A stretch of DNA of 64,000 nucleotides from Rhodoferax sp. (GTDB lineage: Bacteria; Pseudomonadota; Gammaproteobacteria; Burkholderiales; Burkholderiaceae_C): NCBI RefSeq assembly GCF_031291305.1, contig NZ_JARLJH010000021.1; one strand, 5' to 3'. Both the position numbers and the translations under genes were made by a program. This document shows positions 3,308-39,429 of this stretch, one piece after another. The notes below the pieces were generated by a model. It was not told where the DNA came from. It saw nothing but the letters and a program-made list of their open reading frames with translations, and made no database searches. Positions within the stretch are counted from its first letter, which is position 1, and the number at the start of each line of letters is the position of its first letter.

Positions 3308-3406
3308 GCTCCATCGCGGAGCGCAAGGCGTCGCAGTCGTTACCTGCCCCAAACTCCGGTCCTTGAACCGGAATTGGCCATCGTCCCTTGAGGTGATGGC
3401 CTCGTG
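3308..3406 (+). ncRNA. Structured non-coding motif, copy 1 (possibly radC RNA motif family)
   Basis: Hairpin GCTCC/GGAGC, core GGCGTCGCAGTCGTTACCTGCC (3327-3348), then GGCCA..TGGCC stem and TCGTG; homologous copies at 9802, 16314, 39408. Confidence 0.6.
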
Positions 3407-4023
3407 GATTTATTTCGTAGTGCAACCCCTTGTGGCCTGGCCAGCACTTTTCGCTGGGCGTTCCTTGAAACGCGCCACAGTTTTCGATCACACGGTCGGC
3501 ACCTGATGCCGTACCCCTGTTCCCGCCATCCTTTGAGCACGCGTTACACGCAGCGCGCGGTTGTGTTTGCCATTTTTTGGCTCCCCGCGCGTTTTCGCTC
3601 ACAAACTCAGCACCGCCCTGGACTTTCGGTCAGGGGTGGACCCATGCGAGTGGATGGCGCTACGAATCCAGAACTGATCCATCAGTACGTGCAAGGCCTG
3701 ACCTTGCCACGGATGCCCGTTGACACGCCCAAGAGGCGGACCGGCATCACCAACCCCATGGTTGCAGAAATGCACAGGTGGGACGGATCACATGTTTCAT
3801 TTTTAAGGAAGACCGAGCTGGCCAGCGCAGAAGCGCAGGCTGGCAAAACACTGGGTAGGTACCGCACATCGGTGGTCGCGTGCGGTGCCAGAGTTGTTGA
3901 CCACTGATCTGCCGGGCGACGGAATCCGTCCAGCAGGTGACTGCTTTGCGATCCCACCTTTTTTTCAACACCTTCCCGCCGTTCGGGCGGCGGGCAGACA
4001 TCTCTGAAATGGAAGGCCACACC

Positions 4024-5166
4024 ATGCCAAACAAATCTTCTCGTCAGCGGCAACAAGCCTCGGTCAGCCCCGGCCGTCTGTTAGTCAGTGAACCCACGCG
4101 CCGCCAAGAATGGGCGAACAAGACTGTCCCCGAAATCCTTTCGGGCTATCAACCGAGCAAGGCGCCACCGCTGAAGGTGCTGGAGGTGCTGCTGGAACTC
4201 TTCAACACCCTACACACCTCGCTGGATAAAACCGTGTCACACAAGACACGGTACGAACGCGCCCAGTTTCTGCGACGGTTCTTTCGTGACCTCAAAGTCA
4301 AGGCGGGGTTCAACACGATTCCCGATCCACGCAACCTGGGACAGAAACACCTTCATGCGATGGTGCAGGTCTGGCAGAGGGAGCATCTGGCCGCTGCCAC
4401 GATTCAGACTTACCTGAGTTTCCTGCGCGGCTTGGGCATGTGGATGGGCAAGCATGGTTTTGTGCGGGGGCCAGCGCATTACGGTCTGAGCGTGGAGGAA
4501 TACCAGCGGCATGAGTACGCGCAGCGGGACAAGAGCTGGTCCGCGCAGGGTGTGGACATTCAAGCGGTCATCGAGCAGGTATGCGCCTATGACCGACACG
4601 TCGGCGCTTCACTGCGGCTGATCCAGGCCATGGGGCTGCGACGCAAGGAGGCTGTGCTGTTTCGCCCATTTGAAAGCATTGTGCCGTTTGAGGCGACCGG
4701 ACTGGTCTACGAAGACAAGGTGGCGGATCAGTATGTGAAGATCAAAGGCAAGGGTGGGCGGGTGCGTTTCATCCCTCTGGACAGTTCTGCCAGACGGGCC
4801 GCTGTCGATTTCGCACAGGACGTTGTCAGCAGCCTGGGTGCCCATATAGGAAACCCGACCAATGACCTGAAACAGAACCTGCGACGCTTTGACTATGTGC
4901 TGGAGAAATTTGGGATTACGTTTCGGGAACTGGGCGTCACGGCGCATGGCTTGCGTCATGAGGCCCTGATCCAGCACTTTGAAGCGTTGACGGGGCAACC
5001 ACCGCCGGTGCGCGACAGGGTGGACTTGCCGCCAGAAGTTGATCAGGCGGCGCGGCAAGCGGTGGCCGCACTTGCTGGACATTCGAGAATCAGATCGGCT
5101 GGTGCCTACCTGGGTGCTTCACCCGCCCGTCAGGCGCTAGCCACGTTGATCAACGACAAGGACTAA
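4024..5166 (+). CDS. Tyrosine recombinase (integrase domain-containing protein)
   Basis: GLRRKEA (R), KGKGGR (K), HGLRH (HxxR), LAGH, AGAYL (Y); GGAAGG RBS. Confidence 0.9.
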   Translation: MPNKSSRQRQQASVSPGRLLVSEPTRRQEWANKTVPEILSGYQPSKAPPLKVLEVLLELFNTLHTSLDKTVSHKTRYERAQFLRRFFRDLKVKAGFNTIPDPRNLGQKHLHAMVQVWQREHLAAATIQTYLSFLRGLGMWMGKHGFVRGPAHYGLSVEEYQRHEYAQRDKSWSAQGVDIQAVIEQVCAYDRHVGASLRLIQAMGLRRKEAVLFRPFESIVPFEATGLVYEDKVADQYVKIKGKGGRVRFIPLDSSARRAAVDFAQDVVSSLGAHIGNPTNDLKQNLRRFDYVLEKFGITFRELGVTAHGLRHEALIQHFEALTGQPPPVRDRVDLPPEVDQAARQAVAALAGHSRIRSAGAYLGASPARQALATLINDKD

Positions 5167-5200
5167 CCATGCCCATGACAACCCCATTCAATGCTGGCAA

Positions 5201-6211
5201 TCAAGTTGCATTGGTTTTGTACTGGATGACTCTGCATCGCTCCAACAACGCCTCGAAGGACTCCGCATCATCAAAGAATAGACCATCCTCCACCATATGC
5301 TGGTAGTCGGTGGCCAATTTGGCCAGCGAGCCATCTGCAGGCACGAGCTGGAGTCCACGGGAGACGGCGGCGTGGTAGTCAATCACATTGCCGCGCGCAT
5401 CCTTTTCGGCAAAAAACACACTCTTGTGATCAGCGACGGCCTGGGCGAGTGCCTTGTCCGCGATGGCCGCATCAGCGAAACCGGCAGCATCAAGCCGGGT
5501 CACGTCATGCCAATGACGAGCGAAGCGGTCACCCCCGCGGAATTCACCCTGGGCGCAAAAGACGTGAATCGCCGTGGCCTTTTCCCAGAAGGTTCGTTCG
5601 GCGCGCATGACTTGTGGCGTAGCGGTGGGGAACTCCACCCCCTGCAGATGCGCGGCCGCATCACAGCAGATGGCGCGTAGCTCGCTGGGCTCACCGGTAG
5701 AGCGGGCACCGAATTCCAGCATGACAGATGGTGGAACATAGCCCGTCCCGGTGGTCAGTGGCTCGTAGTCGATAAAAACCTTGTCCCCTTCAGCCCGGAC
5801 CGCTGCCGACAAACTTTGCACCGCAAGGTCTTTTTTGAGCCGGGGCACGATCTCGGCGTCAACCCAGCTTGCCAGGCGCGCACGGATTTCCTTGCTCCAC
5901 TTCTTTTCCTGGCTCTTGCTGGCAGGCAAGGGTGAGCCTGTACCGCCGATCAAATCGCTTGCGATAGCCCGGATGTCATAAGTCAGGTCCACGTCTTCGG
6001 AGAAACGGCGGATGACACCGTACGCTTTTGACAGGGATGTGCCACCCTTGAAGACAAGATGCTGAGCGTAGGGGCCAGTGAAGAGGTGCCGCAATACCCA
6101 AACTACCCAGATATCTTTTTCCAGCAAGTGCGGCGGAATGCCGGATGTGTTGGCCGCCGTATTGAGCGCTTCCAAGCGTTCTTCGGGAGAGAACTGGAAG
6201 AACTCAGCCAT
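5201..6211 (-). CDS. abiEii: AbiEii/AbiGii nucleotidyltransferase toxin (type IV TA)
   Basis: LEKDIWV, FKGGTSLSK, RFSEDVDL, TFWEK and RHWHD motifs. Confidence 0.9.
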   Translation of the reverse strand: MAEFFQFSPEERLEALNTAANTSGIPPHLLEKDIWVVWVLRHLFTGPYAQHLVFKGGTSLSKAYGVIRRFSEDVDLTYDIRAIASDLIGGTGSPLPASKSQEKKWSKEIRARLASWVDAEIVPRLKKDLAVQSLSAAVRAEGDKVFIDYEPLTTGTGYVPPSVMLEFGARSTGEPSELRAICCDAAAHLQGVEFPTATPQVMRAERTFWEKATAIHVFCAQGEFRGGDRFARHWHDVTRLDAAGFADAAIADKALAQAVADHKSVFFAEKDARGNVIDYHAAVSRGLQLVPADGSLAKLATDYQHMVEDGLFFDDAESFEALLERCRVIQYKTNAT

Positions 6212-6800
6212 GGGCCACCAGGGCGCTGACCTCTTGGGCCATCCAGGTTGGCAGGCGGGCGCGTGCCGACGCTACTTCTTTCAGTTCAGACGGTGGCAAT
6301 TTGGAACGCAGCTTCTGAATCGCCTCAGCGGCTTTTTCTGGACCCAGCCAGGCCAAAGCACGCACCACATCACCGGCAGCCCGACCAGGGAAGATCAATT
6401 GCCATATCGGCGCATGCCGGAACTCCACCATCTGTGCGCCTAGTTTCAACTGGCGGCTGCGTCCGGACGTGAGATAAACCGCCCGCATGGGTACTTGCGT
6501 GGTCAAGCCCAGCGCATTGGCAGCGGCGGCGCCGTGGGACACGATGGTTTCTCCACGCTGGTTTGCCAGACCTGCAACCATCTTGACAGTTGAAGGCGCA
6601 CGGGTGCCGAAGCGACTTTCGACGGGCAAGACATAGACGCCTCGGCCTGCACGCAGCAGAGTACCGCGCCCCACAAGACGCGACAGCACCTGGTCCACCG
6701 CAGCTCGACTGCCCAGATGCAGCAGTTCTTTTGCAGCCAAAGGCGCGCCTTCCGGCAACCGGGAGGCGTGCTCCAGCACTTGTTTGGCGAGGGTTTGCAT
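6204..6800 (-). CDS. abiEi: AbiEi-type antitoxin / winged-helix regulator
   Basis: N-terminal wHTH (AVDQVLSRLV...GRGVY), GAAAANALGLTTQVP; overlaps the toxin start. Confidence 0.85.
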   Translation of the reverse strand: MQTLAKQVLEHASRLPEGAPLAAKELLHLGSRAAVDQVLSRLVGRGTLLRAGRGVYVLPVESRFGTRAPSTVKMVAGLANQRGETIVSHGAAAANALGLTTQVPMRAVYLTSGRSRQLKLGAQMVEFRHAPIWQLIFPGRAAGDVVRALAWLGPEKAAEAIQKLRSKLPPSELKEVASARARLPTWMAQEVSALVAHG

Positions 6801-6870
6801 GGCGATAGCTCTTAACTGGTAGAATTATCTTCTTATTTCTGACACTTTTCAAGACCCAAAGTTACCGAAA

Positions 6871-8835
6871 TCACGACGGCTGGCATTGATGCACACTGAC
6901 CCGTAACACGGTGGGCAACCAGCCCGTACCCGCCACGGTCTGTTCGGCCCCTGTCACAACGGCATCCTTCTTGAGCGGTTCCAGCGGACTGGCCGCATTG
7001 GCATCGATCGCTTCTGTCACCACCTCCAAAATACGCGCCTTGGAGACATGGTTGAAATACGATTGGCCGGTGGCAGACCACCATTTGCTCATGTCCAGCC
7101 CCAATGCCACAGCCATCGCATCGGTGCTCTGCTTGCTGCGCTCCACACCGTAGACACCGGTGACCGCCGACGCAATGAGGAAGATCAGCAGTTGCTGCAC
7201 AGTGATGGGCTCCTGCGCCAGCACCCACGGGAAGATGGCATCCACCGATTCTGGCAGTCGTGCCGCCCAGGCTGCACGCTCGGCTTCCATCTTCTGCCAA
7301 GCCGCGCTGGTCTTCATGTCATCAGCTTCGGATGACAGGCTTGCATGCGTGTTGGTCGCGCTCACGGTCAAGACATCGTCGCTGCCGTAGTGGCGCAGGT
7401 AGCCATCGACCAGAAGTTTCACGGCCAGATGGGCGGTGATCGCAGCCAGTGCCACGTCGGGGCGATCCATCAGTTCGGCCTGGACGGCAGCAACCCGGTG
7501 GGCGGTGAGTCGACGCATCAGCTTGTCAGAATGAACCGGTCGGGTCTTGGGTGAAGGCAGCGACACCAGCGACTCGTCATCACCGCCCTCGCCTGCCAGT
7601 CGCGCCGCCTGCGCCATGTCGCTGCGGTCCTCAGGACGAACCAAGCCGCATTTGAGGGCCGCTGTGCCGTCGTTACCGACATAAACCACGCATCCGGCCT
7701 GGGTCATCAGGTCGGCGGGCCAGATGCTGAGGGTGTCTTCCAGTGCCTTGATCTGCGACTGCAGACTCTCGGACTCGGTTTGAAGCTTGTCGTATTCGTT
7801 ATCCTCATCGCCTTCATCCACTTCTGCTTCGGCCAAGACTTCCATCTGGTCATGCAGCGCGGCCATTCTGGTTTCAAGTTCAGCGAGGCTGGCTGCTTCC
7901 TGCTCAGTCGGCTCACGCCGGGTCTTGCGCAGTTCGCCGTACTTATCGAATTCGTCGTAGCTATAGCGCACGCGGACATCGACCCACTTCCAACCATCAG
8001 CGGCGACCTGTTTGGCCTTTTTCTGCAGTTTGTCCGTCGCCAGCTTCTCCAGCAGCGGGGCGTCCAGCAAATAGGCCTTCTTGTCGTCGTCGCTAAACAG
8101 GTCGCGGCGCAGGGTGCCACCGGCTTTCTCATAAGCCTTGACGGTCACGTATTTGACCAACGGGTCACGATCAGACTCGATTTCGCCCTGCGTGAGCAAT
8201 TGGCGCAGGTAATCGGGGCGGCGATTCCAGGTCGGCACCGCGGCCCAGGTTTGTTCCTGCTTGTCGTAGTCATCAACCGACGCCAGCACCATAAGGCAGT
8301 CCAGACCGATCTTGTCTTCCCGGAACTGCGCCATCAGCGTGGGGGACACTGTCGCCAGTTTCATACGGCGTTTGACCACCAGTGGCGTGACACCGAAGGC
8401 GGCAGCCACGTCTTCCACCGACTTGCCCTGCCCCATCAGCTTGGCAAAGGCGGTGTATTCGTCAGCCGGGTGCATGGGGATGTGGAAGAAATTTTCTGAA
8501 AGACTGGCGATCAGGGCCTTGTCCGCGGGCACGATCAGCACGGGCACGGGGTAGTTTTCGGGAATGTCGCCGTTCATGACCAGCAAGGCCAGTGCTTCAA
8601 GACGGCGACCGCCCGCACAAACCTCGAACAGACCGCGAGCGCCTTTCACGACGATCAGGTTTTGCAATACGTTGCTTTCCTTGATGGATGCCGCCAGTTC
8701 GGCGATGCTCATCTTCGATGTGCTGCCAGCAGACCGGGCCTGGTAGGTGTCCGACAGGATCAGCTTATTGAAGGGGACGGTGGCGCGAGGGGACGCCTCG
8801 ATGACGGCTTCGATTTCGGCTTTCGAGAATTTCAT
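6871..8835 (-). CDS. Large ParB-family protein (conjugative-element type, no cognate ParA nearby)
   Basis: LAASIKESNVLQNLIV, AGGRRLEAL (ParB box II), SLSEN, HPADE, HTH region. Confidence 0.9.
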   Translation of the reverse strand: MKFSKAEIEAVIEASPRATVPFNKLILSDTYQARSAGSTSKMSIAELAASIKESNVLQNLIVVKGARGLFEVCAGGRRLEALALLVMNGDIPENYPVPVLIVPADKALIASLSENFFHIPMHPADEYTAFAKLMGQGKSVEDVAAAFGVTPLVVKRRMKLATVSPTLMAQFREDKIGLDCLMVLASVDDYDKQEQTWAAVPTWNRRPDYLRQLLTQGEIESDRDPLVKYVTVKAYEKAGGTLRRDLFSDDDKKAYLLDAPLLEKLATDKLQKKAKQVAADGWKWVDVRVRYSYDEFDKYGELRKTRREPTEQEAASLAELETRMAALHDQMEVLAEAEVDEGDEDNEYDKLQTESESLQSQIKALEDTLSIWPADLMTQAGCVVYVGNDGTAALKCGLVRPEDRSDMAQAARLAGEGGDDESLVSLPSPKTRPVHSDKLMRRLTAHRVAAVQAELMDRPDVALAAITAHLAVKLLVDGYLRHYGSDDVLTVSATNTHASLSSEADDMKTSAAWQKMEAERAAWAARLPESVDAIFPWVLAQEPITVQQLLIFLIASAVTGVYGVERSKQSTDAMAVALGLDMSKWWSATGQSYFNHVSKARILEVVTEAIDANAASPLEPLKKDAVVTGAEQTVAGTGWLPTVLRVSVHQCQPS

Positions 8836-9787
8836 GGGAACTCCTGAAGGGTTAAAAAGGGACCAGCGACGTGCTGTCCATGCCTTCAGAATCTCATGTA
8901 CTACTCAGTCTTCAACCCCTCAGTGCGATAGCATCGCTGCATATTGCGCGGGAAATCGCGTCACAAAATTCAGCCTAAATCCCACACTGCTTCGCACCAC
9001 CCTCGTCGTCCTGTTTATACCGCCGCTATACGAAGTCCCGTTCCTGTTTTCCGCACCACAAGGGTATCTTGCGGAAATCAAGCGGCTGCACCTGCCAGCA
9101 GATACACCCAAAGCCACGGTTTACCAATGGCTGTGGATCAAGGCAGCGACGGTCACCACCCTGCCGTTCGTGGAAATGGTCACGTCCCCACGCCAACATC
9201 GCACCTTCAAAGAAGCGGTTCTATGGTTCGACGGTACGAAAGATGAGCTTCGCTGGAACAGCGGGCCGACCGAACAGCTCTCGACGGAGCCAAGCCAGAC
9301 CCTACCTCAGCTCCTGCTCCGACGGGTCAATTTGCACTTGAGTTGAATCACGATCACCCTTCCGATTCACCTAGACCACGGGCCAATCACAATAGACCGC
9401 CGTAACACGCGCCATTCTCGCAAAGGCTATTGCCCCCATGCGCATGCCAAGGTCCTTTTGTTGACACACAGGAAATCCTTCATGCGCCTTGGCTCCATTC
9501 GACCGCTTCAGTGATTCGCCTGTGGCTGATCGAGGCATTGGAACTGGCCCAACACCTGCTCTACCGGGATGAACTGACATCGCTGCTCAACCAGCAGGGA
9601 TTACGGCGGGCTTGGGAACAGCACCGCAGGGGACGCTGAATTTTGGCCCAGGCGCTTACCACCGGAAATCGATCTGCTTTTCCGGCGTTGCACCTGGAAA
9701 TTCGTTGAAATGCACCCACTCGCCGTCTGAAAAAGGCACACTGGTTCCGCTTCTTGGCCTCGGCCAAAGCACGCTCGTCGGAGCGCT

Positions 9788-9823
9788 CCTGAGTCTGCTC
9801 AGGCGTTGCGGTCGTTACCCGCC
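9788..9823 (+). ncRNA. Structured non-coding motif, copy 2
   Basis: Hairpin CCTGAG-tctg-CTCAGG then GGCGTTGCGGTCGTTACCCGCC (9802-9823, 19/22 to copy 1) with A:T to G:C compensatory change. Confidence 0.55.
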
Positions 9824-10020
9824 TTGCCTGTTGGCGCTGCACCCTGCGGCTGTCTTTCGTACCCGGATTCTTACCCCACTTGAGTCATCCGCTTGCCCTC
9901 GTCTGACGGCAAGCCATTTCATTCTTTTCATAGCCCATTGAGCCCGCCAGCTTCTCCCGAAGCCCGGCACGCTCACGTTCACACGCAGGGGACATTCCTG
10001 ACCCTCGCATTCATTCCCAC

Positions 10021-10079
10021 CCGGGGAGCACGTCTCCCCAGTGGGGACCGTGTTCCCCATATTTTTGGAGAACACACCC
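10021..10079 (+). repeat. G/C hairpin leader repeat upstream of RBS
   Basis: CGTCTCCCCAGTGGGGA (10031-10047) identical to 17360-17376; followed by GTGTTCCC and TGGAGAA..ACACC ATG in both. Confidence 0.65.
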
Positions 10080-13000
10080 ATGGCACGCTATACCGCGCCT
10101 TCCCTATGGCTACCCGGGTTCAATCCGGAGCCCTCCGAGCCCGCAACTCTTGTCATCGAGACCGAAGCGCCTGCACCAGATCTGACATCCACCACGGAAG
10201 AAAGTCCTGCCGGAGAATTTGCTGTACCGACGCGTCCATGTGCCAACTGGCGTGTGGTCAGCGGCACCACAGAAACGGCACCCCGAAACCTGTGGCCACA
10301 GTTGATCCGCGCCGACTTGCACACGCTGGGCGGCAGCGTCACCAAATTCGAGGCCAATCTGGCCGCGATCAGGGTACTGCGCCAGATCGAGGCCGAGCAA
10401 CGCCCGGCTACGCCGAACGAACGCAGCACGCTGCTGCGCTACACCGGCTGGGGCGGCTTGCCCGCCAGCTTCAACCTCGAAGGCGAAGACGCGGCCTGGG
10501 CCATGCGTGCCAGGCAACTGAGTGCACTGCTGACCCCGGCTGAGTACGAATTCGCCCGTGCATCGGTGAACAACAGCCACTACACCGAGGTTCACGTGAT
10601 TGAGGCGATCTGGCAGGCCGTGCAGCGCTTTGGTTTCAGTGGCGGGCGAATTTTGGAGCCCGCTGCGGGTATTGGCCACTTCCTTGGTGCCATGCCACCG
10701 GCCATTGCTCAATGCAGCAACGTCACCGCGGTCGAGATCGACCAGCTGTCCGGGCGCATGCTGCACACGCTGTATACACCGGGTGGCGTCGATGTGCGGA
10801 TTTCCCCCTTCGAGAAAACCGCCCTGGCCGACAACTGGTTCGATCTGGTGATCGGCAACGTGCCGTTCGGCAAATACCAGGTTGCCGACGTGAGCAACCG
10901 GGCCTACGCCCGATTCAGCATCCACAACTACTTCTTTGGCCGTGCACTGGATCTGGTACGGCCCGGCGGACTGGTGTGCCTGATCACCACCAGTTACACA
11001 CTGGATGCCCAGGATGACAGCGTGCGCCACTACCTCGGCGCACAAGCTCAGTTGCTGGGCGCGATCCGGCTCCCACGAGGTGCCTTCGCAGGCATTGCGT
11101 CCACCGACGTGCAGACCGACATCCTGTTCTTGCGCAAGCGACAGCGGGCGGAGAAGGTCGATGACAGCTGGCTGAACCTCAAGCTGGTGCCAGAGACACT
11201 GCGCGACCCGCAGTGTTATCAGAGACACCTGCAGATCAATGCCTGGTATACCCAACACCCGGAATTCTGCATTGGCCGGATTCAGCAAGAGAGTAACGGC
11301 TATGAGGAAGTGCCGGTGGCAGTGTTCGACGGTGACCTGGAGGCCGTGTTACCCGAACGGGTTGCCCTGCTCCCGTCCGATGTCTACCAGCCATTGGTGA
11401 GAAAGCCAGTGGCATTGCGGGTCGTTGTCCCCGCCGAATCCGGCGCCCGCCCCGGCAGCTACCGCCTCCACCAAGGGCGGGTGCATCGGGTCGAAGGCAG
11501 CGAGATGACGGATGTGCATGAGCAGCTCAACGCCACACAGCGAGGCCGGATCACCGGCCTATGTGCGATTCGCGATTACGCCCGTGCCCTGCTGGATGCC
11601 CAGTTGTCAGGTAGCAACGATGGACGGCTGGGTCACTTGCGGGCGCTGCTCAACGGCACCTATGACCGCTTCATTGCCAAATACGGTTGCCTGAGCACCC
11701 GGGCCAATGCGCTGGCGTTCCGGCGCGACCCGGATTACCCGCTGTTGCTGTCGCTGGAGCACTACGACGAAGAGTCGGACAGCGCCAGGAAGGCGGCGCT
11801 GTTCACGCGGCGCACGCTGACACGGGTAGTGGAGCCGACCACGGCGGGAGAACCAACCGAAGCACTGGCAGCGTCCATCCAGTGGCGCGGACGTGTCGAT
11901 CCAGCTTACATGGCCGGGCTGCTCACCGCGCCCGAAGACGCGGTGTTGCAAGCGCTGACCGAGGTTGGGCAGATCTTTCTCGATCCGGCAGATTCTGAGT
12001 GGAAAGCTGCGGACGACTACCTGTCGGGCAACGTGAAAGCGAAGCTCAAGCAAGCCGTGATGTCAGGTAGCGCCTACCGGCGCAACATCGATGCGCTGGA
12101 GCAGGTGCAACCCGAAGACCTACCCCCCACGTCCATCGAGCCGCGCCTGGGTGCGGTATGGATTCCAGCCATGGAGGTCGAAGGCTTCGTGCAGGATGTG
12201 CTGGAGCTCCAGGACTGCCAGGTCAGCTATTCGGCCGAGGCCGGTGCCTGGTCGGTGCGTTATGACGACTGGAAAGCGCGCCAGAACGTGAAGGTGACGC
12301 AGGAGTTTGGCACCTCGCGCATGAACGCGATGGAGCTGGTGCAATGCGCGCTGAACGTGCAGGTGCCCACGGTGCGCGACCCGGACCCCGAGACCGACAA
12401 GTACGTCGTCAATCCAGGCGAGACGCTGGCCGCACGCGAGAAGCTGGGCTTGATCAAGGAGCGGTTCGCAAGTTGGGCCTTCGACGACACGGCACGGCGA
12501 GAGAAGCTGTGCCGCATCTACAACGACCTGTTCAACGCCACCCGGCCACGGCAGTTCGATGGTTCACACCTGAAGCTGCCGGGATTCTCACGCTGTTTCA
12601 CGCTGCACCCGCACCAGCTGGATTCCGTCTGGCGCGTCGTGCAGTCGGGCAATACCGGCCTGTTCCATGTCGTCGGTGCGGGCAAGACGGCCGTTTGCGT
12701 GATCGCCAGCATGGAGTTGCGTCGGCTGGGTTTCGTCACCAAGCCTTGCCACGTGGTACCGAACCATATGCTGGCGCAGTACACGTCAGAGTTCGTTCGG
12801 CTCTACCCAAATGCGTCGGTGCTGATGGCCAGCAAGGAAGACCTGGAAGGCGACCGTCGGCGCGAGCTGGTGTCGCGCATCGCCACGGGCGACTGGGACG
12901 CGGTGGTCATCACGCACTCAAGCTTCGAGCGCATCAAGATGTCACCGCAATTCACGGAGGGCTTTATCAAGGAGATCATTCATGAGCTGGAAATGGCGGT

Positions 13001-15068: not shown

Positions 15069-15075
15069 TTGAGTG

Positions 15076-15112
15076 GACCCCCATGGCTGAAAAGCGATGG
15101 GGGTCTTTTTTT
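15076..15112 (+). terminator. Rho-independent terminator after the helicase gene
   Basis: GACCCCCAT/ATGGGGGTC stem followed by a T7 run. Confidence 0.8.
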
Positions 15113-15120
15113 GTCTTTCT

Positions 15121-15143
15121 TTATCCACAGGTCCTGTGGATAA
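15121..15143. promoter_or_regulatory. Inverted pair of perfect DnaA-box 9-mers
   Basis: TTATCCACA-GGTCC-TGTGGATAA. Confidence 0.5.
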
Positions 15144-15278
15144 ACAGGTTGCTGCAGGGCGCCAGCCCGCATCGGTCAACAACATCCTTGGCGTGCCTGC
15201 AAATTCAGCAAGTCACGCCAGTTCAGCGCACATATCTTGGGCCAACCTGCATCAGGACATCGTCAGTCAGACACCGGC

Positions 15279-15973: not shown

Positions 15974-15996
15974 GATGATATCTCCTTGATTTGGAT

Positions 15997-16845: not shown

Positions 16846-16847
16846 CC

Positions 16848-18410: not shown

Positions 18411-18433
18411 ACTGTTCTATAAGGAGAATCGTC

Positions 18434-22027: not shown

Positions 22028-22073
22028 GACTGTTCTTTGACTTTGACTTTGAATCTGGACCGGACAGGGATGG

Positions 22074-30752: not shown

Positions 30753-30873
30753 CTTGCCATTTGACATCCTACCCGGTACTGACGGCACGACCGCTGGTCG
30801 TCACTGTTCAATAATCAAGCCGCTCGTGATCGCCTGCTGAAGGCTGTCACCCACACGAATTTAAATTTCCAAC

Positions 30874-32634
30874 ATGGCCACCACCAACCCCAACCTCAGC
30901 TCCTTCATCTGGTCCGTCGCGGACCTTCTGCGCGGTGACTACAAACAATCCGAATACGGCAAAGTCATCCTGCCCTTCACCGTGCTGCGCCGCCTGGACT
31001 GCGTGCTGGAGCCCACCAAGGCCGATGTGCTGGCCGAGAAGGCCCTGCGTGAAAAAGCGGGCCTGAACCCCGAGCCCTTTTTGCTGCGCAAGTCCGGCCA
31101 GTTCTTCTACAACACCTCGCCGCTTGACCTCAAAAAGCTCATGGGCGACCAGGACCACATTGGCGAGAACCTGCGTGCCTACATGCAGGCCTTCAGCCCA
31201 GCGGTGCGTGACATTTTTGAGAGCTTTGAATTCCACACCCAGATTGACAAGCTGGCCAAGTCCGGCCTGCTCTACATGGTCACCGAGAAATTCGCCACCA
31301 TCGACCTGCACCCAGACGTGGTCAGCAATGCCGAAATGGGCGCGGTGTTTGAAGAGCTGATCCGCAAGTTTGCCGAACTCTCCAACGAAACCGCTGGCGA
31401 ACACTTCACCCCGCGTGAGGTGATCCGCCTGATGGTCAACCTGCTGTTCATTGAAGACGACCAGGCCCTGACCAAGCCCGGCGTGGTGCGCAGCCTGTAC
31501 GACCCCACAGCAGGCACCGGCGGCATGCTCAGCGTCGCCGGGGAACACCTGGCCAGCCTAAACCCCGACGCGCGCCTGGTCATGTACGGCCAGGAACTCA
31601 ACCCCGAGTCCTACGCCATCTGCAAGGCCGACATGCTGATCAAGGGCCAGGACATTGCCAACATCATCTTTGGCAACACCCTGTCTGCCGATGGCCTGCC
31701 GGGCAAGGTGTTTGACTACAGCCTGTCCAATCCGCCCTTTGGCGTGGAGTGGAAAAAGATTGAGGCGGTGATCCGCAAAGAAGCTGAACAACAAGGCTTC
31801 AACGGCCGTTTTGGCCCCGGCCTGCCACGCGTCAGCGACGGCTCGCTGCTGTTTTTGCTGCACCTGATCGCCAAGATGCGCCCGGCAGTTGATGGCGGCA
31901 GCCGCTTTGGCATTGTGCTGAACGGCTCACCGCTGTTCACAGGTGGTGCAGGCAGTGGCGAGAGTGAAATCCGCCGCTATGTGCTGGAGAGCGATCTGGT
32001 CGAAGCCATCATCGCCTTGCCGACGGACATGTTCTACAACACTGGCATCAGCACCTATGTGTGGATCGTCAGCAACCGCAAACCCGCAGCGCGCAAAGGC
32101 AAGGTGCAGCTGATTGACGCCAGCAGCTTCTGGCAGAAGATGCGCAAAAGTCTGGGCAGCAAGCGCAAAGAGCTCAGTCCCGAACACATCGAGGACATCA
32201 CCCGATTGTTTGGCGACTTCAAGGAGGTGAGCCGCCACGTGGACGGCAGCCCGGTGCCCATCAGCCGCATTTTTGCCAACGATGTCTTTGGTTACCACAC
32301 CATCACCGTGGAGCGGCCCGAGCGCGATGCTACTGGCAAGGTCGTGCTGGGCAGCAAAGGCAAGAGCAAAGACAAACCGATGGCCGATGCCAACCTGCGC
32401 GATACCGAAAACGTGCCGCTCAGCGACGACATTGCAGCCTATTTCAAGCGCGAAGTGCTGCCCCATGCGCCCGATGCCTGGATCGACACCGACAAGACCA
32501 AAGTGGGTTACGAGATACCGTTCAACCGCCACTTCTACGTCTTCAAACCGCCGCGCCCGCTGGCTGAGATTGATGCCGAGCTGAAAGGTGTGACTGACCG
32601 GATACTGACCATGATCAACGGGTTGACAGCATGA
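30874..32634 (+). CDS. hsdM: Type I R-M methyltransferase subunit
   Basis: [36 protein letters not shown]. Confidence 0.95.
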
Positions 32635-33944
32635 GCTTTCCGCGATACCCGGCCTACAAGGACAGTGGCGTGGCGTGGCTGGGTGACATTCCGGTGCATT
32701 GGGGCATTGGTCAAAGCCGCAGACTATTCGCCCTCCGCAACGAGCGCGCATTGAATTCGGACAAGCAACTTACTGCTTCCCAGGTGCATGGCGTCATCTA
32801 CCAAGATGACTTCATTCGGATGGAAGGGCGAAGGGTTGTCGAGGTTATTAAAGGCGCTGACATTCTTAAGCATGTAGAGCCAAATGATTTTGTGATCAGT
32901 ATGAGGAGCTTCCAGGGAGGAATTGAATGGTGCCAAGTTCGTGGCTGCATCAGTTCGGCCTATGTAATGCTTGCCCCGTGTGACCGTATTCACGCACCGT
33001 TCTTCCAATACCTGCTCAAAAGTCAAAGCTACATTCAAGCACTTCAAACAACGTCGAACTTGGTGCGAGATGGGCAGGCGCTTCGATACGACAACTTCAC
33101 TCAGGTTGATTTACCCCTCGTCCCTCTCCCCGAACAAACCCAAATCGCTGCCTTCCTGGACCGCGAAACCGCAAAGATTGATGCGCTGGTGGCAGAGCAG
33201 CGGCGGCTGATGGCGTTGCTGAAAGAAAAGCGCCAGGCCGTCATCTCCCACGCCGTCACCCGGGGCCTGAACCCCCATGCCCCCATGAAGCCGTCCGGCA
33301 TCGAATGGCTGGGGGATGTGCCGGAGCATTGGGTGCAGTCGCGTATCAAGTACAGCCTTCGCGGCCTAATTGACACGGAGCATAAGACGGCACCGTTTTT
33401 CGATGACGGGGAATATTTGGTCGTACGAACTACAAACATCAAAGACGGAAAGTTGATTCTTGAGGGTGGCAAATACACAAATTTCGACGGCTATGAGGAG
33501 TGGACACGCAGAGGCAAGCCTGTGCCGGGTGACATTATGTTTACGAGAGAGGCCCCAGCTGGCGAGGCATGTTTAGTACCCGAGGATGTGCAACTCTGTA
33601 TGGGGCAACGCACCGTCTTGATGCAAATTGACCATGACGCCCTCGATTCACTCTTTGCCTTGTGGTCGCTCTATGGTGGGCTGGCTTCGGAATTCATCAC
33701 GATTCTGTCGCAAGGCTCAACCGTCACTCACTTCAACATGAGCGACATCAGTAACATCCCGATCATGTTGCCGTCAGTTGACGAACAGAGGGAAATAGCT
33801 GGATTTCTTGAGTCCGAACTTGCCAAATTCGACACCCTCACCACCGAAGCACAACGCGCCATCGACCTGCTGCAAGAGCGCCGCACCGCGCTGATCTCCG
33901 CCGCCGTCACCGGCCAGATTGACGTGCGGGGTGCAGTGAAATAA
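32631..33944 (+). CDS. hsdS: Type I R-M specificity subunit
   Basis: Two TRDs bracketed by repeated G-x-x-WLG-x-x-P-x-HW and P-x-x-EQ segments; LKEKRQAVI and LQERRTALI helices. Confidence 0.95.
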
Positions 33945-34077
33945 CTATGTTTTCAATAGCTACTAGCCCAGCTTCTATATTGGCTAGAGGCTTATTTTCC
34001 ATATAAACACCGGCGAACGATCTCGGCCAGCCAATGCGCCCCTCGCACAAAATATACCTTTTCAGGTAACATTCACC

Positions 34078-34435
34078 ATGCCCAGCAAGGACAAACCGCT
34101 CGCCTGGATCGGCAGCAGCAAAAAAGACCTGCTGGCCTTGCCGCTGGAGGTGCGCAAGTTCTTTGGACATGCGCTGGACTTTGCCCAGCGCGGTGACAAA
34201 CACGATGCAGCCAAGGTTCTCAAGGGCTTTGGTGGCGCGGGTGTGCTGGAGCTGGTGGAAGACGATCAGGATGGCACCTACCGGGCGTTGTACACCGCCC
34301 AAGTTTGCCCAGGCGGTGTTTGTGCTGCATTGCTTCAGCAAGAAGAGCAAGCGCGGCATCGAGACACCCAAAGAAGATATGGACATCATTCGCGCACGGC
34401 TCAAGGTGGCCGAGGCGCTGGCCAAGGAGTTATGA
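34078..34435 (+). pseudogene. RelE/HigB (Gp49-like) toxin with +1 frameshift
   Basis: KPLAWIGSSKKDL...TYRALYTA then an extra C at 34297-34300; continues KFAQAVFVLHCFSKKS in the next frame. Confidence 0.8.
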
Positions 34436-34436
34436 C

Positions 34437-34784
34437 ATGAGCAAGAAAACCGCAGTGCGCACCATCGACGGCATCGAGATTGACATGGGGTCCGGCAATG
34501 TGTTTGCCGACCTGGGCCTGCCCGATGCCGACAAACTCAAGATCAAATCCGGCCTGGTCATCGAAATCACCAAGGCCATGCGCAAGCTAGGCCTGACCCA
34601 AAAAGCCGCCGCCGAGCGCATGGGCATCCCCCAGCCCAAGGTCTCAGCCATGATGCGTGGCGACTTCACCAATCTGTCCGAACGCAAGCTGATGGACTGC
34701 CTGAACCGGCTGGGCTACGACATTGAGATCAAGATCAGGCCAGCCGCTGAGTCTGTGGGGCATTTGATGCTGGCGTTTGCCTGA
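34437..34784 (+). CDS. HigA-like HTH antitoxin
   Basis: GSGNVFADLGL, LTQKAAAERMGIPQPKVS HTH, LGYDIEI. Confidence 0.9.
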   Translation: MSKKTAVRTIDGIEIDMGSGNVFADLGLPDADKLKIKSGLVIEITKAMRKLGLTQKAAAERMGIPQPKVSAMMRGDFTNLSERKLMDCLNRLGYDIEIKIRPAAESVGHLMLAFA

Positions 34785-34845
34785 GTCCAACGCACTGAAC
34801 ATAGTCGCCGTCACCGGCCATAGCAAGTCATCAAGGGAGTGGTCA

Positions 34846-37800
34846 GTGAGCCTGCACAAAGAAATCAGCTTCGAGTCCGAAATATGCCAACACTTGGCCA
34901 CCCACGGCTGGCTGTACTCGGAGGGTGATGCCGCAGGCTATGACCGCGCCCGCGCCCTGTTCCCCGCCGACGTGCTGGCCTGGGTGCAAGCCACGCAGCC
35001 TAAAGCTTGGGACACGCTGGTCAAAAACCATGGCAGCAAGGCTGAAGAAACTTTGCTCACCCGCCTGCGTGACCAGTTGGACCAGCGCGGCACGCTGGAT
35101 GTGCTGCGCCATGGCGTTGAACTGCTGGGCCTCAAAGCGCCGTTGACCTTGGCGCAGTTCAAACCGGCGCTGGCGATTAACCCCGACATCCTGGCCCGGT
35201 ATGCGGCCAACCGCCTGCGGGTGGTGCGCCAGGTGCACTATTCCCTGCATTGTGAGAACAGCATCGACCTGGTGTTGTTCCTGAACGGTCTGCCGGTGGC
35301 CACGGTTGAACTCAAAACTGACTTCACCCAGAGCCTGGGTGACGCCATTGACCAATACCGTTTTGACCGCCACCCCAAGCCCAAAGGTCAAGCCGCTGAA
35401 CCCTTGCTGTCTTTCCCCAGCGGGGCCTTGATCCACTTCGCCGTCAGCAACAAGGAAGTGGCCATGGTGACCAAGCTGGCAGGTGCAGCCACGGTGTTCC
35501 TGCCCTTCAACCTGGGTGACGATGGTGCCGCCGGTAACCCGGTGAACCCTGCTGGCGGCCACCGGACCGCCTACCTGTGGGAACAGGTCTGGGCACGCGA
35601 GAGTTGGCTGGAGATTCTGGGGCGCTACCTGATCGCCCGGCGCGACAAGAAAAAGCAGATTGAGGCTGTCATCTTTCCGCGTTACCACCAGCTCGACGTC
35701 ACCCGCAAACTGCAGTTTGCCGTGCTGGCGGACGGGCCGGGCAGCAAATACCTGATTCAACATTCAGCCGGTTCCGGCAAAACCAATTCGATTGCCTGGA
35801 CAGCGCACTTTTTGGCCGAGCTGCATGACGCCCACCACCAGAAGGTGTTTGACACCGTGCTGGTGGTGTCGGACCGCAATGTGATCGACGCCCAATTGCA
35901 GGAAGCCCTGTTTGACTTCCAGCGCACCACAGGTGTGGTGGCCACCATCACGAGTCAGGATGGCAGCAAAAGCGGCAAGCTGGCCGAAGCCCTGTCGGGT
36001 GACAAGAAAATTGTGGTCTGCACCATCCAGACCTTCCCCTTCGCGCTGGAAGCCGTGCGCAAGCTGGCTGCCACCCAAGGCAAGCGCTTTGCCGTGATCG
36101 CCGACGAAGCGCACAGCTCACAGACCGGCGAAGCCGCCAGCAAACTCAAGGCCGTGTTGTCCCCAGAAGAACTGCAGGAGATCAACGACGGTGGTGAGAT
36201 CAGCAGCGAGGACATCCTGGCCGCGCAAATGGCCAGCCGGGCCGATGACGGCGGCATCACCTTTGTGGCCTTCACCGCCACGCCCAAGAACAAGACGCTG
36301 GAACTGTTTGGCACCCGGCCAGACTCCAGCCGCAAACCCGCGCCGGACAACGTGCCCCAGCCGTTTCACGTCTATTCGATGCGCCAGGCCATTGAGGAAG
36401 GCTTCATCCTGGATGTGTTGCAGAACTACACCCCCTACAGTCTGGCGTTCAAGCTGGCCCACAACGGCCAGGAAATGAATGAGAAAGAGGTGGAACGCAA
36501 CGCCGCCATGAAAGGCATCATGGGCTGGGTGCGGCTGCACCCGTACAACATTGCCCAGAAGGTGCAGGTGGTGGTGGAGCACTTTCGCGAGTTTGTGGCA
36601 CCGCTGCTCAACGGCAAGGCCAAAGCCATGGTCGTGGTGGGCAGCCGATTGGAAGCCGTGCGCTGGCAACTGGCGGTTGAGAAGTACGTCAAGGACAACG
36701 GCTACACCGTGGGCACGCTGGTGGCGTTCTCCGGTGAGGTCAACGACCCAAGCTCTGGTGAAGAACCCTTCACTGAAAACAGCAAGGTGCTGAATCCCAA
36801 CCTCAAAGGCCGCGACATCCGCGAGGCCTTCAAGGGCGATGAGTACCAAATCCTGCTGGTGGCCAACAAGTTTCAGACCGGGTTTGACCAACCGCTGCTG
36901 TGCGGCATGTACGTGGACAAGCGCCTGGCAGGCATCCAGGCGGTGCAGACCCTGAGCCGCCTGAACCGCGCTTATCCGGCCAAGGACACCACTTATGTGC
37001 TGGACTTTGTCAACGACCCTGCCGAGGTACTGGCCTCGTTCAAGGCGTACCACACCACGGCTGAACTCAGCGCCACCACCGACCCGAACCTGGTTTACAA
37101 CCTACGTGCCAAGCTGGATGCTGCTGGCCACTATGACGACTTTGAAGTAGACCGGGTGGTCGAGGCCGAGCTAAACCCGAACGCCAAGCAGAGTGATCTG
37201 ATCAAGGCGCTTGAGCCGGTGCAAGACCGCTTGATGAAGCGCTACAAGGCCGCACAGGTGGCGCTGGCAGAGGCCAAGATCAAGTCAGATGCAACCGCAA
37301 CCACGGCAGCCCAGGACGAACTGGACGCGCTGGTGCTGTTCAAGGGTGACATGGGAGCCTATATCCGGCTGTACACCTTTCTGTCGCAAATCTTTGACTA
37401 CGGCAACACAGGCATCGAAAAGCGCGCCATGTTTTACAAGCGCCTGCTGCCCCTGCTGGAGTTTGGCCGCGAACGCGAAGGTATCGACCTGTCCAAGGTG
37501 GTGCTGACCCACCACCACCTGAAAGACCAGGGGGCACGCACCCTGCCACTAGGACCAGGTGAGACACCCAAGCTGGCGCCCATCACTGAGGCGGGCAGCG
37601 GCAGCGTGCAAGAACAGCAAAAGGTGTACATGGCTGAGCTGATCAATAAGCTCAATGACCTGTTTGGCAATGACACCAGCGAGCAGGATCAGCTGCGCTA
37701 CGTCAACGGCACGATCCTGGGCAAAGTCAGCGAATCCAAAACGCTGCAGCAGCAAGCCGCCAACAACACCAAAGAACAGTTTGCCAACTCACCCGACCTA

Positions 37801-37977
37801 CAGACCGAGTTGCAAAACGCCATAATCGAGTCGTATGACGCGCACTCAGTCATGAGCACCCAGGCGCTGAATTCACCCATTGTGTTGCGTGGCATTCTGG
37901 ACGTGCTTTTGAATCACTCGGGGTTGTATGAGGCGCTGCGGGGAAGGGCCGGGGCGGGAACGCAAACAGCTGCGTGA
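34846..37977 (+). CDS. hsdR: Type I R-M restriction subunit
   Basis: IDLVLF...VELK...AIDQY nuclease motif, QHSAGSGKT, IADEAH, FTATP, KFQTGFD; GTG start with AAGGGAG RBS. Confidence 0.95.
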   Translation: MSLHKEISFESEICQHLATHGWLYSEGDAAGYDRARALFPADVLAWVQATQPKAWDTLVKNHGSKAEETLLTRLRDQLDQRGTLDVLRHGVELLGLKAPLTLAQFKPALAINPDILARYAANRLRVVRQVHYSLHCENSIDLVLFLNGLPVATVELKTDFTQSLGDAIDQYRFDRHPKPKGQAAEPLLSFPSGALIHFAVSNKEVAMVTKLAGAATVFLPFNLGDDGAAGNPVNPAGGHRTAYLWEQVWARESWLEILGRYLIARRDKKKQIEAVIFPRYHQLDVTRKLQFAVLADGPGSKYLIQHSAGSGKTNSIAWTAHFLAELHDAHHQKVFDTVLVVSDRNVIDAQLQEALFDFQRTTGVVATITSQDGSKSGKLAEALSGDKKIVVCTIQTFPFALEAVRKLAATQGKRFAVIADEAHSSQTGEAASKLKAVLSPEELQEINDGGEISSEDILAAQMASRADDGGITFVAFTATPKNKTLELFGTRPDSSRKPAPDNVPQPFHVYSMRQAIEEGFILDVLQNYTPYSLAFKLAHNGQEMNEKEVERNAAMKGIMGWVRLHPYNIAQKVQVVVEHFREFVAPLLNGKAKAMVVVGSRLEAVRWQLAVEKYVKDNGYTVGTLVAFSGEVNDPSSGEEPFTENSKVLNPNLKGRDIREAFKGDEYQILLVANKFQTGFDQPLLCGMYVDKRLAGIQAVQTLSRLNRAYPAKDTTYVLDFVNDPAEVLASFKAYHTTAELSATTDPNLVYNLRAKLDAAGHYDDFEVDRVVEAELNPNAKQSDLIKALEPVQDRLMKRYKAAQVALAEAKIKSDATATTAAQDELDALVLFKGDMGAYIRLYTFLSQIFDYGNTGIEKRAMFYKRLLPLLEFGREREGIDLSKVVLTHHHLKDQGARTLPLGPGETPKLAPITEAGSGSVQEQQKVYMAELINKLNDLFGNDTSEQDQLRYVNGTILGKVSESKTLQQQAANNTKEQFANSPDLQTELQNAIIESYDAHSVMSTQALNSPIVLRGILDVLLNHSGLYEALRGRAGAGTQTAA

Positions 37978-38513: not shown

Positions 38514-38735
38514 TTGAACTCACATCGTGCGCACAGGGTCGAAGCGGTGTGGACGCACGGCAAAGGGACCCTCAAAGTACTGACGCCTGATGGTACCGTG
38601 CTGGCCCGTGTGGACGCGGCCGACGACGCTGATGTGGCCGTACACCCGGTCGTGGTCAACGCCTGCCACGCGCTGCAATCGGGCGATGCCTCACGGATCG
38701 GACAATTGTTCGGTCAGATACTCAAGGCAGCCTGA
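38514..38735 (+). CDS. Small hypothetical protein
   Basis: 73 aa ORF; start uncertain. Confidence 0.4.
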   Translation: MNSHRAHRVEAVWTHGKGTLKVLTPDGTVLARVDAADDADVAVHPVVVNACHALQSGDASRIGQLFGQILKAA

Positions 38736-38845
38736 CACCCTGCCTGGCGCAAACCTGTTGCGCCTCGTGGAGCCTGCCCTGCCCTTCGGGACGGGGCCGG
38801 TTCATTTGTTGTCAAAAAGAGGGGGCAATTGGCGGACCCCCATCG

Positions 38846-39061
38846 CTAGGCAACCCGACGGCACTGGCGATATTCCCGGTCAATCAACCAGTGGATGAAC
38901 TCCGTTTGTTCGGAAACGCCCCAGTAATGCGCTTTGCACCGTGCGACATAGGCCTCCAGGTCGCCCAGCGTGCGAATGTCCACCGGTTCGATGTCGGTGA
39001 TCTTGGTAAACACTTCCATTTCCTTGCGGGTCAGGCGAATCTGGTCGTTGAGTCGAATCAT
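38846..39061 (-). CDS. Small hypothetical protein
   Basis: MIRLNDQIRLT...HYWG...WLID; protein-like composition. Confidence 0.55.
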   Translation of the reverse strand: MIRLNDQIRLTRKEMEVFTKITDIEPVDIRTLGDLEAYVARCKAHYWGVSEQTEFIHWLIDREYRQCRRVA

Positions 39062-39394
39062 GGTCATACCCCTGCAAATGGGTTTGCCGGTATCTTGTCC
39101 GAATTTGACCCGCATGTCGCTGGTTTTCTGTGGTGCGCCTCAAAGATATTTCCAGCATGACGCCAGTCGCAGGCCAATGTCACCTCACTGTGAATGCCAA
39201 CCCTTCTGGAACACCATGTCGCGCCCCTGCAACAAGTTCGACATAAAACAGCCGACCCACGACACACGCCACCGAAATCACCCGAACTTTGCTGACATTT
39301 ACGGGTGGTCTCGTGGCGCCCCCACTTGAACACCACCCATCACCGCGCCAGACTATGCGGGTGATCCCTGTGCATTTCCTCGTGGAATGCCCAT

Positions 39395-39429
39395 CCGGCC
39401 TTGGGCCGGCGTCGCAGTCGACACCTGCC
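39395..39429 (+). ncRNA. Structured non-coding motif, copy 4 (upstream of radC)
   Basis: Hairpin CCGGCC/GGCCGG then GGCGTCGCAGTCGACACCTGCC (39408-39429, 20/22; both changes in the loop). Confidence 0.6.

Follow-up and report, generated by a model that had tools for sequence, protein, structure and literature searches.

The window analysed here, a 64,000-nucleotide (nt) stretch of contig NZ_JARLJH010000021.1 of Rhodoferax sp. (assembly GCF_031291305.1), belongs to an integrative conjugative element (ICE) and carries five copies of a short two-hairpin motif that we take, with moderate confidence, to be a cis-acting, promoter-proximal 5′-leader RNA module docking a common factor. Matching the 22-nt core GGCGTCGCAGTCGTTACCTGCC against the whole window returned four copies on the + strand, at 3327-3348 (no mismatch), 9802-9823 (three mismatches), 16314-16335 (none) and 39408-39429 (two), just as an earlier, sequence-only reading of this DNA had listed them, and a fifth that it had overlooked, on the - strand at 57159-57180 with one mismatch. 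The chance expectation for such matches, estimated from 100 shuffles, was 0. A covariance model of hairpin plus core, built from twelve equal-length instances and run over the whole window with filters off, yielded exactly five matches scoring 36.6-55 bits, the next best scoring 15.9. The copies are followed, in order, by an integrase gene (3937-5166, PF12834/PF12835), a methylase-helicase gene (10041-15068), a small open reading frame (ORF) of 66 residues (MLASIYRK.., 16820-17048, +), a RadC gene (start about 39528) and, for copy 5, a second integrase gene (55504-56466, - strand); the first four of these had been named correctly before. A second coding sequence after copy 3 (17278-17940, +) encodes a conserved protein of ~170 residues (..RAWxxFYxRVGxD..GDIAVECLP) without a Pfam family. 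A + strand ORF spanning copy 5 had no family match and a low-complexity translation, and was dismissed.

A pattern scan of one genome per species placed the motif in at least 120 loci, and the metagenome scan comprised at least 600 stretches. Among the genome matches listed, hosts were mostly Burkholderiales (Rubrivivax, Ideonella, Piscinibacter, Aquabacterium, Acidovorax, Rhodoferax and others) and Rhodocyclales (Dechloromonas, Thauera), with some Xanthomonas and Proluteimonas; a few matches in GC-rich coding DNA of Actinomycetota and others were evident chance matches and were set aside. In 2.9 million viral contigs the pattern matched six times, and three of these matched the model at E<=0.01 with 24-28 bits, over the core only and without the hairpin; they look like chance in GC-rich DNA, the motif being essentially absent there. 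Neither window positions 3000-17500 (near mode) nor the copy 1 leader (distant mode) matched anything in a plasmid collection, and the motif-bearing elements appear to be chromosomal. Among the loci listed, instances group in context classes that track the downstream gene: the PF12834/PF12835 integrase in class A, the methylase-helicase in class B, the small ORF with the conserved ~170-residue protein in class C and RadC in class D, with several further classes besides. Pfam assignments of 125 downstream ORFs from these loci comprised Phage_int_SAM_2 (33), Integrase_1 (20), RadC (12) and Eco57I-type methylase (5). Both ORFs after copy 3 show coding periodicity, and the ~170-residue protein has homologues after class C motifs elsewhere; the two are candidates for a regulator.

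The association with RadC was also seen when loci were retrieved by protein similarity and not by motif. Among 80 metagenomic RadC loci obtained in this way, 12 contained the module 100-250 nt upstream of radC, co-oriented with the gene in all 12 cases, and all 12 were among the 15 closest relatives (L121-L135, plus L136). The radC leaders of two loci, L124 and L131, retain the platform (CGCGGGGACctcgTTCCCC..GGCGTTCC..GGAGAACGCC-ATG) but miss the hairpin-plus-core module; the core module is therefore discrete and can be gained or lost as a unit. The core is shared by otherwise unrelated leaders, and its sequence, searched in both orientations, was in no paper found. What is new here is thus a widespread leader motif that is neither in Rfam nor in the literature searched, its gene company and position being already known from the radC RNA motif discussed below.

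The proposal of a structured, strand-specific, non-coding cis element upstream of these genes is supported by covariation. Hairpins of differing sequence precede the core, as the sequence-only reading had noticed, and their register can now be refined: in copies 2-4 the core's first two G's are also the end of the 3′ arm (CCTGAG/CTCAGG, 9788-9803, in copy 2; CCAGC/GCTGG, 16303-16315, in copy 3; CCGGCC/GGCCGG, 39395-39409, in copy 4), while the copy 1 hairpin GCTCC/GGAGC (3308-3322) stops 4 nt short of it. Within the core, copy 2 differs by A9>G together with T19>C, plus C6>T, and the changes of copy 4 are confined to the loop, again as first read. Covariation in a larger alignment, which had been named as a test of the proposal, was found in a set of 130 model-aligned instances (113 distinct sequences). 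Standard pairs fill 98.8% of the cells in the 113 distinct sequences, versus 87.3% in shuffles, of which 0/500 reached the observed value, and 26-51% in slid registers. In the upstream helix (helix 1), the three inner pairs take 4-6 pair types each (e.g., AU 32, GC 30, UA 9, CG 5), and RNAalifold independently yields the same two helices. Core pair 9:19 is AU in 79 and GC in 34 of the distinct sequences and is never unpaired. The genome pattern scan, which permitted A:C and G:T at these positions, gave A:T 84, G:C 44, G:T 2 (both chance loci) and A:C 0 among the matches listed. Both alleles are present in classes A, C and D and within the window itself, where copy 2 carries one and copies 1, 3, 4 and 5 the other. 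A second recurring module, a hairpin with an ATCGY pentaloop, is present in 46 of 114 instances, among which 36 stems are distinct; the class C sequence 'gacatcgcg', first taken for the start codon of a divergent gene, is in fact such an ATCGC-loop hairpin.

The strand that folds can be read from the direction of wobble pairs, G.T on the sense strand indicating a fold of that strand (as RNA or non-template DNA) and A.C a fold of the template strand, as in the Frpo model of single-stranded promoters. When ATCGY hairpins were located by their loop with both wobbles allowed, the outer pairs were Watson-Crick in 118 cases, G.T in 18 and A.C in 2. The helices of the class C alignment gave 54 G.T versus 9 A.C, those of class A 23 versus 2, and the covariance-model alignment 20 versus 5. 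The alifold energy of class C was -32.5 for the sense and -27.4 for the antisense strand. For classes A and D, RNAalifold on MAFFT alignments was uninformative as a strand comparison, indels hiding evident hairpins, and loop-anchored hairpins were used instead. With G.T outnumbering A.C in all sets and the class C sense strand folding better, the folded strand is, by these sequence comparisons, the sense strand. This result speaks against the single-stranded DNA (ssDNA) folded promoter that the sequence-only reading had put forward as one of its two readings, as do linear boxes upstream of the motif and stems of only 4-8 base pairs (bp).

Sigma-70-like -35/-10 pairs were detected upstream of the core in sense orientation in 47 of 114 instances and in antisense orientation in 5; in the downstream region the corresponding numbers were 1 and 0. 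The boxes lie 40-90 nt upstream of the core, the -10 box ending 70-79 nt 5′ of it in 27 of the 47 instances with boxes, and the class alignments keep TTGAC or TTGAA as -35 box (TTGAC and TCMACT across 29 class A loci; TTGARC and MATACT across 31 class C loci); the layout of copy 4 recurs in the 12 RadC loci retrieved by protein. The distance from core to start codon, in turn, ranges from ~100 nt (radC) to ~600-700 nt (integrases). That the spacing of the module is set relative to the promoter rather than the start codon favors co-transcriptional action over local control of translation. The features of each copy are as follows.

Copy 1, 3251-3279, +: promoter-like boxes TTGACT (3251-3256) and TCAACT (3274-3279), 17-nt spacer; weak call, the -10 box lacking the usual A2.
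Copy 1, 3291-3322, +: upstream hairpins AGGGCC/GGCCCT (3291-3307) and GCTCC-ATCGC-GGAGC (3308-3322, ATCGC loop), both in the minimum-free-energy fold; class A stem variants preserve pairing.
Copy 1, 3327-3348, +: core GGCGTCGCAGTCGTTACCTGCC, its inner hairpin pairing 3333-3336 with 3344-3347 around the loop TCGTTAC; found by core match and covariance model.
Copy 1, 3355-3401, +: downstream hairpins TCCGG/CCGGA (3355-3372) and GGCCATC/GATGGCC (3376-3401), then TCGTG.
Copy 1, 3389-3404, +: alternative terminator-like stem TGAGG..CCTCG, then TGGATTTATT.
Copy 1, 3270-3936, +: long conserved non-coding leader between the promoter-like boxes and the integrase gene (3937-5166).
Copy 2, 9705-9733, +: promoter-like boxes TTGAAA (9705-9710) and TGAAAA (9728-9733), 17-nt spacer; weak match.
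Copy 2, 9788-9823, +: module, hairpin CCTGAG-tctg-CTCAGG (9788-9803) overlapping core GGCGTTGCGGTCGTTACCCGCC (9802-9823); covariance model.
Copy 2, 10041-10070, +: leader end, GGGGAC..GTTCCCC hairpin and ATATTTTT, directly 5′ of the methylase-helicase Shine-Dalgarno (SD) sequence GGAG.
Copy 3, 16208-16237, +: promoter-like boxes TTGAAC (16208-16213) and GACAAT (16232-16237), 18-nt spacer.
Copy 3, 16251-16301, +: upstream hairpins GTGGAC-ATCGC-GTCTAC (16251-16267) and CTTCA[GGGGAA-tccg-TTCCTC]TGAAG (16273-16301), predicted fold; they covary, with numerous G.U pairs.
Copy 3, 16303-16335, +: module, hairpin CCAGC-ctg-GCTGG (16303-16315) overlapping core (16314-16335); covariance model and predicted fold.
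Copy 3, 16347-16398, +: downstream hairpins CCGGTC..GACTCGG and GGCCA..TGGCC (16370-16393), then TCGTG.
Copy 4, 39326-39356, +: promoter-like boxes TTGAAC (39326-39331) and GACTAT (39351-39356), 19-nt spacer.
Copy 4, 39372-39429, +: module, hairpin GCATTTCC-tcgt-GGAATGC (39372-39390), hairpin CCGGCC-ttg-GGCCGG (39395-39409) and core (39408-39429).
Copy 4, 39459-39511, +: expression platform with competing helices, ATCCCGAG..CTCGGGAT (39459-39490) versus CGGGAT..TTTCCG plus CTTTTCTGTT (39485-39511).
Copy 4, 39492-39527, +: anti-SD helix, GGCGTTTCC (39492-39500) pairing with GGAGAACGCC (39518-39527); radC start TTG at 39528.
Copy 5, 57283-57255, -: promoter-like boxes TTGAAC (57283-57278) and GACATT (57260-57255), 17-nt spacer.
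Copy 5, 57156-57196, -: module, weak hairpin plus core GGCGTCGCAGTCGATACCTGCC (57180-57159), upstream of the integrase gene (55504-56466).

The downstream GGCCA..TGGCC stem followed by TCGTG is common to copies 1 (3376-3406) and 3 (16370-16398), as had been noted before. Across instances, a terminator-like hairpin with U-tract lies within 300 nt downstream of the core on the sense strand in 45 of 102 cases, versus 8 on the antisense strand. RadC leaders end in mutually exclusive helices (ATCCC..GGGAT versus CGGGA..TTCCCG with a U-tract) and in an anti-SD helix that pairs GG-N-GUUCC with GGAGAAC-N′-CC immediately 5′ of the start codon. The N:N′ pair of this helix covaries, 43 cases comprising C:G 19, U:A 11, G:C 3, wobble 3 and mismatch 7. 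The same anti-SD helix (39492-39530 in the window; also in L062, L096 and L123-L132) precedes many genes of the elements, motif-bearing or not, and may be a shared device of translational control. The copy 1 leader is conserved in about 20-30 loci, its part 3500-3825 in ~30, more than the start of the integrase gene. Positions 3270-3830 are non-coding, their mismatches lacking 3-base periodicity and their indels not being multiples of 3; positions 3830-4010 are ambiguous for coding, and the integrase control was strongly periodic. Many helices are predicted in this ~650-nt leader (3270-3936), which could be a large structured RNA or a recombinase DNA site.

As far as the known leader motifs of ICEs are concerned, the closest comparison is the radC RNA motif (RF01754; Weinberg et al. 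2010, PMC2864571). This structured RNA, a candidate for cis-regulation, is located in the 5′ untranslated regions (UTRs) of radC, integrase, DNA methyltransferase and anti-restriction genes and, together with STAXI RNAs, occurs in many copies in MPF-G ICEs (Cury et al. 2017). The sequence-only reading had pointed to this motif, and the gene company indeed agrees: like the radC motif, that of the window is placed in the predicted 5′ UTR before genes of the radC, integrase and methyltransferase classes, with several copies per element. Family membership, on the other hand, fails. The Rfam radC model did not match the window at the gathering threshold (40 bits) or at E<=10, nor, with lax filters, positions 3230-3470, and neither radC, STAXI nor any other Rfam family matched at the five sites or in 18 related loci. 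As a positive control, the same search found a true radC RNA (60.5 bits) in L144, a more distant RadC locus, lying ~220 nt before a RadC homologue that shares 53% identity with the window's and thus in the same position as copy 4. The radC seed has a consensus of ~150 nt (..GUCGGC..GCCGAC AACAUGCCC AGGUAGCC..GGCUAC GGUGCGU..ACGCAC GGU), and none of the five window leaders contains its blocks AACAUGCCC, AGGUAGCC..GGCUAC or GGUGCGU..ACGCAC. The window motif, in contrast, shares among its copies a module of 41 nt, which forms two hairpins and includes the invariant 22-nt core. With no match to the Rfam model at any threshold and none to the published seed, the window motif is not a member of the radC family; it is a positional, and probably a functional, analogue of it. 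The leaders of six other loci (L150, L151, L154, L155, L172 and L199), whose RadC homologues are 64-67% identical, share yet another conserved sequence (..CCTTCAACGTACCACGCCGTTCTCGCCGTCAAGG..GCGACCCCTGAC..), located ~100-330 nt before radC; an Rfam scan of five of these loci gave no match, and this may be a third family of ICE leaders. STAXI motifs are tandem pseudoknotted repeats. The family (RF01728; Ssbp, Topoisomerase, Antirestriction, XerDC Integrase) is ICE-borne and multi-copy, and its authors raised a possible role as ssDNA; unlike the window motif, it is enterobacterial, and its Rfam model has no match here.

We infer that at least five transcription units of the ICE carry the module in their nascent leader RNA. 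Each unit would begin at a sigma-70-like promoter, behind which come between one and three hairpins that vary in sequence and often include an ATCGY-pentaloop hairpin. The invariant module would come next, 40-90 nt past the -10 box: its first hairpin would be closed by two C-G pairs to which the core contributes its first two G's, and the linker CGUY (4 nt) would connect this to a second hairpin of 4 bp, whose 7-nt loop UCGWYAC is conserved. Another 100-700 nt on, the leader would end in terminator-like hairpins with U-tracts and/or in a helix sequestering the SD region. In this model, one common factor would dock on the two-hairpin core, be it RNA polymerase itself or an RNA-binding protein that the element encodes, and docking near the promoter would, probably co-transcriptionally, allow read-through of the leader attenuators so that establishment and maintenance genes are switched jointly. 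The lambda nut (boxA plus boxB) and HK022 put sites offer a template: they are promoter-proximal, present in multiple copies per mobile element and orientation-specific, and they act ahead of terminators. A nut site is a short conserved linear stretch followed by a 15-nt hairpin and a put site is two adjacent hairpins, and the window module resembles both. Unlike these sites, it has no sequence similarity to either, and no N-like or NusG-like protein was found among the window ORFs scanned. Processive antitermination as the specific outcome of docking is thus a tentative suggestion, and equally speculative is the idea that the core is an RNA signal complete in itself and reprograms promoter-proximal RNA polymerase, either alone as in HK022 put or with a small ICE protein as in the case of lambda N. 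Were this true, transcription of all establishment operons in a large family of ICEs from beta- and gammaproteobacteria would pass the leader attenuators jointly, and the radC motif, the STAXI motif and the leader of the L150 group would represent interchangeable solutions to one task.

Several observations weigh against a docking module in leader RNA. The compensatory change that the sequence-only reading had seen in the core stem of copy 2 is real, A9>G being accompanied by T19>C, but it is weaker than was assumed: pair 9:19 has two states only and is linked to position 6 (T6 occurs solely with G9:C19), and shared descent or gene conversion could therefore explain part of its covariation. 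The flanking hairpin is free of this linkage, and its covariation is, in the alignment, strong. The core is nearly invariant, stems included (17/22 positions in 130 sequences), a pattern equally typical of protein-DNA operators and of RNAs. Folding energies of single copies are no better than those of shuffles (z from -0.98 to +0.26), and the case for structure rests, at the level of sequence, on covariation and not on stability. The -35/-10 boxes of the window copies are all under the threshold of a strict promoter scanner, which found nothing, and the class A -10 box is poor. Transcription starts are predicted only. RNA-seq contigs of one isolate show one break at a predicted start, with a depth of 11.4 downstream versus 5 upstream, but, like the metatranscriptome contigs, they are of low depth and unstranded, and the break is not decisive. 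The U-rich tail of some terminator-like hairpins also belongs to the anti-SD helix loop, and these hairpins may not terminate. Finally, among ~60 window ORFs scanned with Pfam and NCBIfam, there was no candidate binding protein and no NusG-, N-, Q- or ANTAR-like family.

The invariance of the core, in loop and stem alike, would also be expected of a double-stranded DNA operator, in which case a transcription factor of the element, for example an FlhC-like activator or a roadblock repressor, would bind the 22-bp core and the hairpins would be unrelated leader structure. The motif is, like a regulon box, an orientation-specific site upstream of a set of genes, its absence from the otherwise retained leaders of L124 and L131 suits a discrete box, and an FlhC-like gene adjoins the relaxase gene of the element. 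The related ICEclc provides a precedent, with a 27-bp box at 8/9 co-regulated promoters bound by BisC, and the two elements are alike in placing a shared signal before co-regulated genes and in combining an FlhC-like activator with a TraI_2 relaxase. In ICEclc, however, the BisC/BisDC 27-bp boxes are DNA sites at promoters, and bisS, a palindrome of 23 bp, is located within genes. The window core is no palindrome, and compared with eight published ICEclc boxes it reached at best 9-13/22 matches, no better than shuffled cores (p = 0.3-0.4); a homology with the ICEclc PinR box, suggested by eye from 7+3+3 matches at the same spacing, was likewise at chance level and was rejected. The core, moreover, lies 40-90 nt downstream of the predicted -10 box, promoter-like boxes following it in only 1/114 instances, and no mixed combination of positions 9 and 19 was seen, even though a single element can hold both alleles. 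The first two G's of the core close a hairpin whose other pairs covary freely, which ties the core to the folded strand. We consider an operator unlikely.

G.T-tolerant pairing is as compatible with ssDNA as with RNA, and the folded sense strand, if it is the one transferred, might accordingly be an ssDNA signal, either an ssi priming site for a Toprim primase or a folded tyrosine-recombinase site in the manner of integron attC or CTX attP. A primase gene is present in the window (61477-62478), integrase genes follow 2/5 of the window copies and 33/125 elsewhere, copies within one neighbourhood are co-oriented in all listed two-copy loci, and the STAXI motif was flagged 'DNA?' by Weinberg et al. 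Copy 5, however, is on the strand opposite copies 1-4 while being co-oriented with its own gene, the motif is always positioned between a promoter-like site and a gene start, no chimeric contexts marking crossovers at the core were seen among the loci listed, and the leaders carry features of RNA type such as anti-SD helices and a GNRA tetraloop. An integron attC-like site was also rejected on the grounds that the copies are 6-23 kb apart with genes on both strands between them and that flanking contexts stay together by class. Such a signal strikes us as quite improbable.

Lower still in our estimation is a target box through which a trans-acting small RNA would control the five leaders jointly, by silencing or by activation. 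Such a shared target has its model in the RocR boxes of Legionella competence mRNAs, and an invariant stretch of ~22 nt common to otherwise unrelated leaders fits it, but no complement of 10 nt or more was found in the 64-kb window or in the 4.4 kb to its right, and half of the box would be locked in two hairpins. There is little, too, to recommend a riboswitch-like sensor, in which the module and its neighbouring hairpins would bind a small molecule and switch the terminator or anti-SD platform. Alternative helices do precede the ribosome-binding site, and Weinberg et al. rated the radC motif '? complex' for riboswitch potential; the conserved part, however, is two small hairpins without a multi-stem junction, its distance to the platform varies from ~55 to >600 nt, and the neighbouring hairpins differ by class. 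A Frpo-type promoter, in which the folded, transferred template strand is transcribed before its complement is made, shares with our motif the biology of dispersed, co-oriented structured repeats upstream of early establishment genes, as known from the Frpo/ssi sites of F and ColIb-P9 leading regions, but is very improbable: those are ~300-nt imperfect template-strand hairpins that rebuild a promoter, whereas here the wobble pairs are on the sense strand, the 4-8 bp stems are too short for -35 and -10 boxes to re-form in duplex, the -35/-10-like boxes upstream are linear, and copy 5 is on the other strand.

Returning to the leader RNA module, the radC and STAXI motifs have been known since 2010 and represent most RNA annotations in one large class of ICEs. 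The window motif precedes the same gene classes as the radC motif, in one case a homologous gene, and its essential part of ~41 nt is a small mutable handle, which makes the joint switching of ICE establishment genes (integrase, RadC, methylase-helicase) directly testable. That several unrelated leaders serve homologous ICE genes points to a general, as yet unnamed layer of RNA-level control in conjugative elements, and the result argues against applying the 'single-stranded promoter' model of plasmids to ICE motifs without a strand test.

With respect to the element itself, the window encodes ParM/ALP-like and ParB-like proteins, AbiEii, UmuC, a type I restriction-modification system, RadC followed by DUF5983, a Gp3-like recombination directionality factor, the Toprim primase, DUF932 and fluoride-resistance cargo. 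In the contig to the right of position 64000 (L201), the primase gene is followed by DUF932, a 113-residue gene, an FlhC-like gene (PF05280) and a TraI_2 relaxase gene (PF07514), and no further copy of the motif was found in this continuation. The relaxase and the FlhC-like gene identify the window as part of a MOBH-type ICE with an activator of the FlhDC/SetCD/BisC type. Defence and repair cargo, comprising an AbiEii toxin, UmuC, a SRAP peptidase, a GHKL ATPase, a NERD nuclease and a complete type I restriction-modification system, is found after copy 1 and in the 23 kb between copies 3 and 4, at the following positions.

5201-6211, -: defence/repair cargo.
20705-22234, -: defence/repair cargo.
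24299-24970, +: defence/repair cargo.
26520-28511, -: defence/repair cargo.
29772-37977, +: defence/repair cargo.

The cargo between copies 3 and 4 looks like an insertion, since class C and D motifs are only 2.9 kb apart in L016. A fluoride riboswitch (RF01734, 46.9 bits) at 49421-49502 (+) is followed by a small + strand ORF (49514-49945), a gene of the Na+/H+ exchanger family (50276-51451) and an enolase gene (52143-53408), which together look like a fluoride-resistance cargo module inside the island. In one related locus (L090), an nhaA-I riboswitch (RF03057, 43.8 bits), unconnected with the motif, was detected at 3871-3930 (-).

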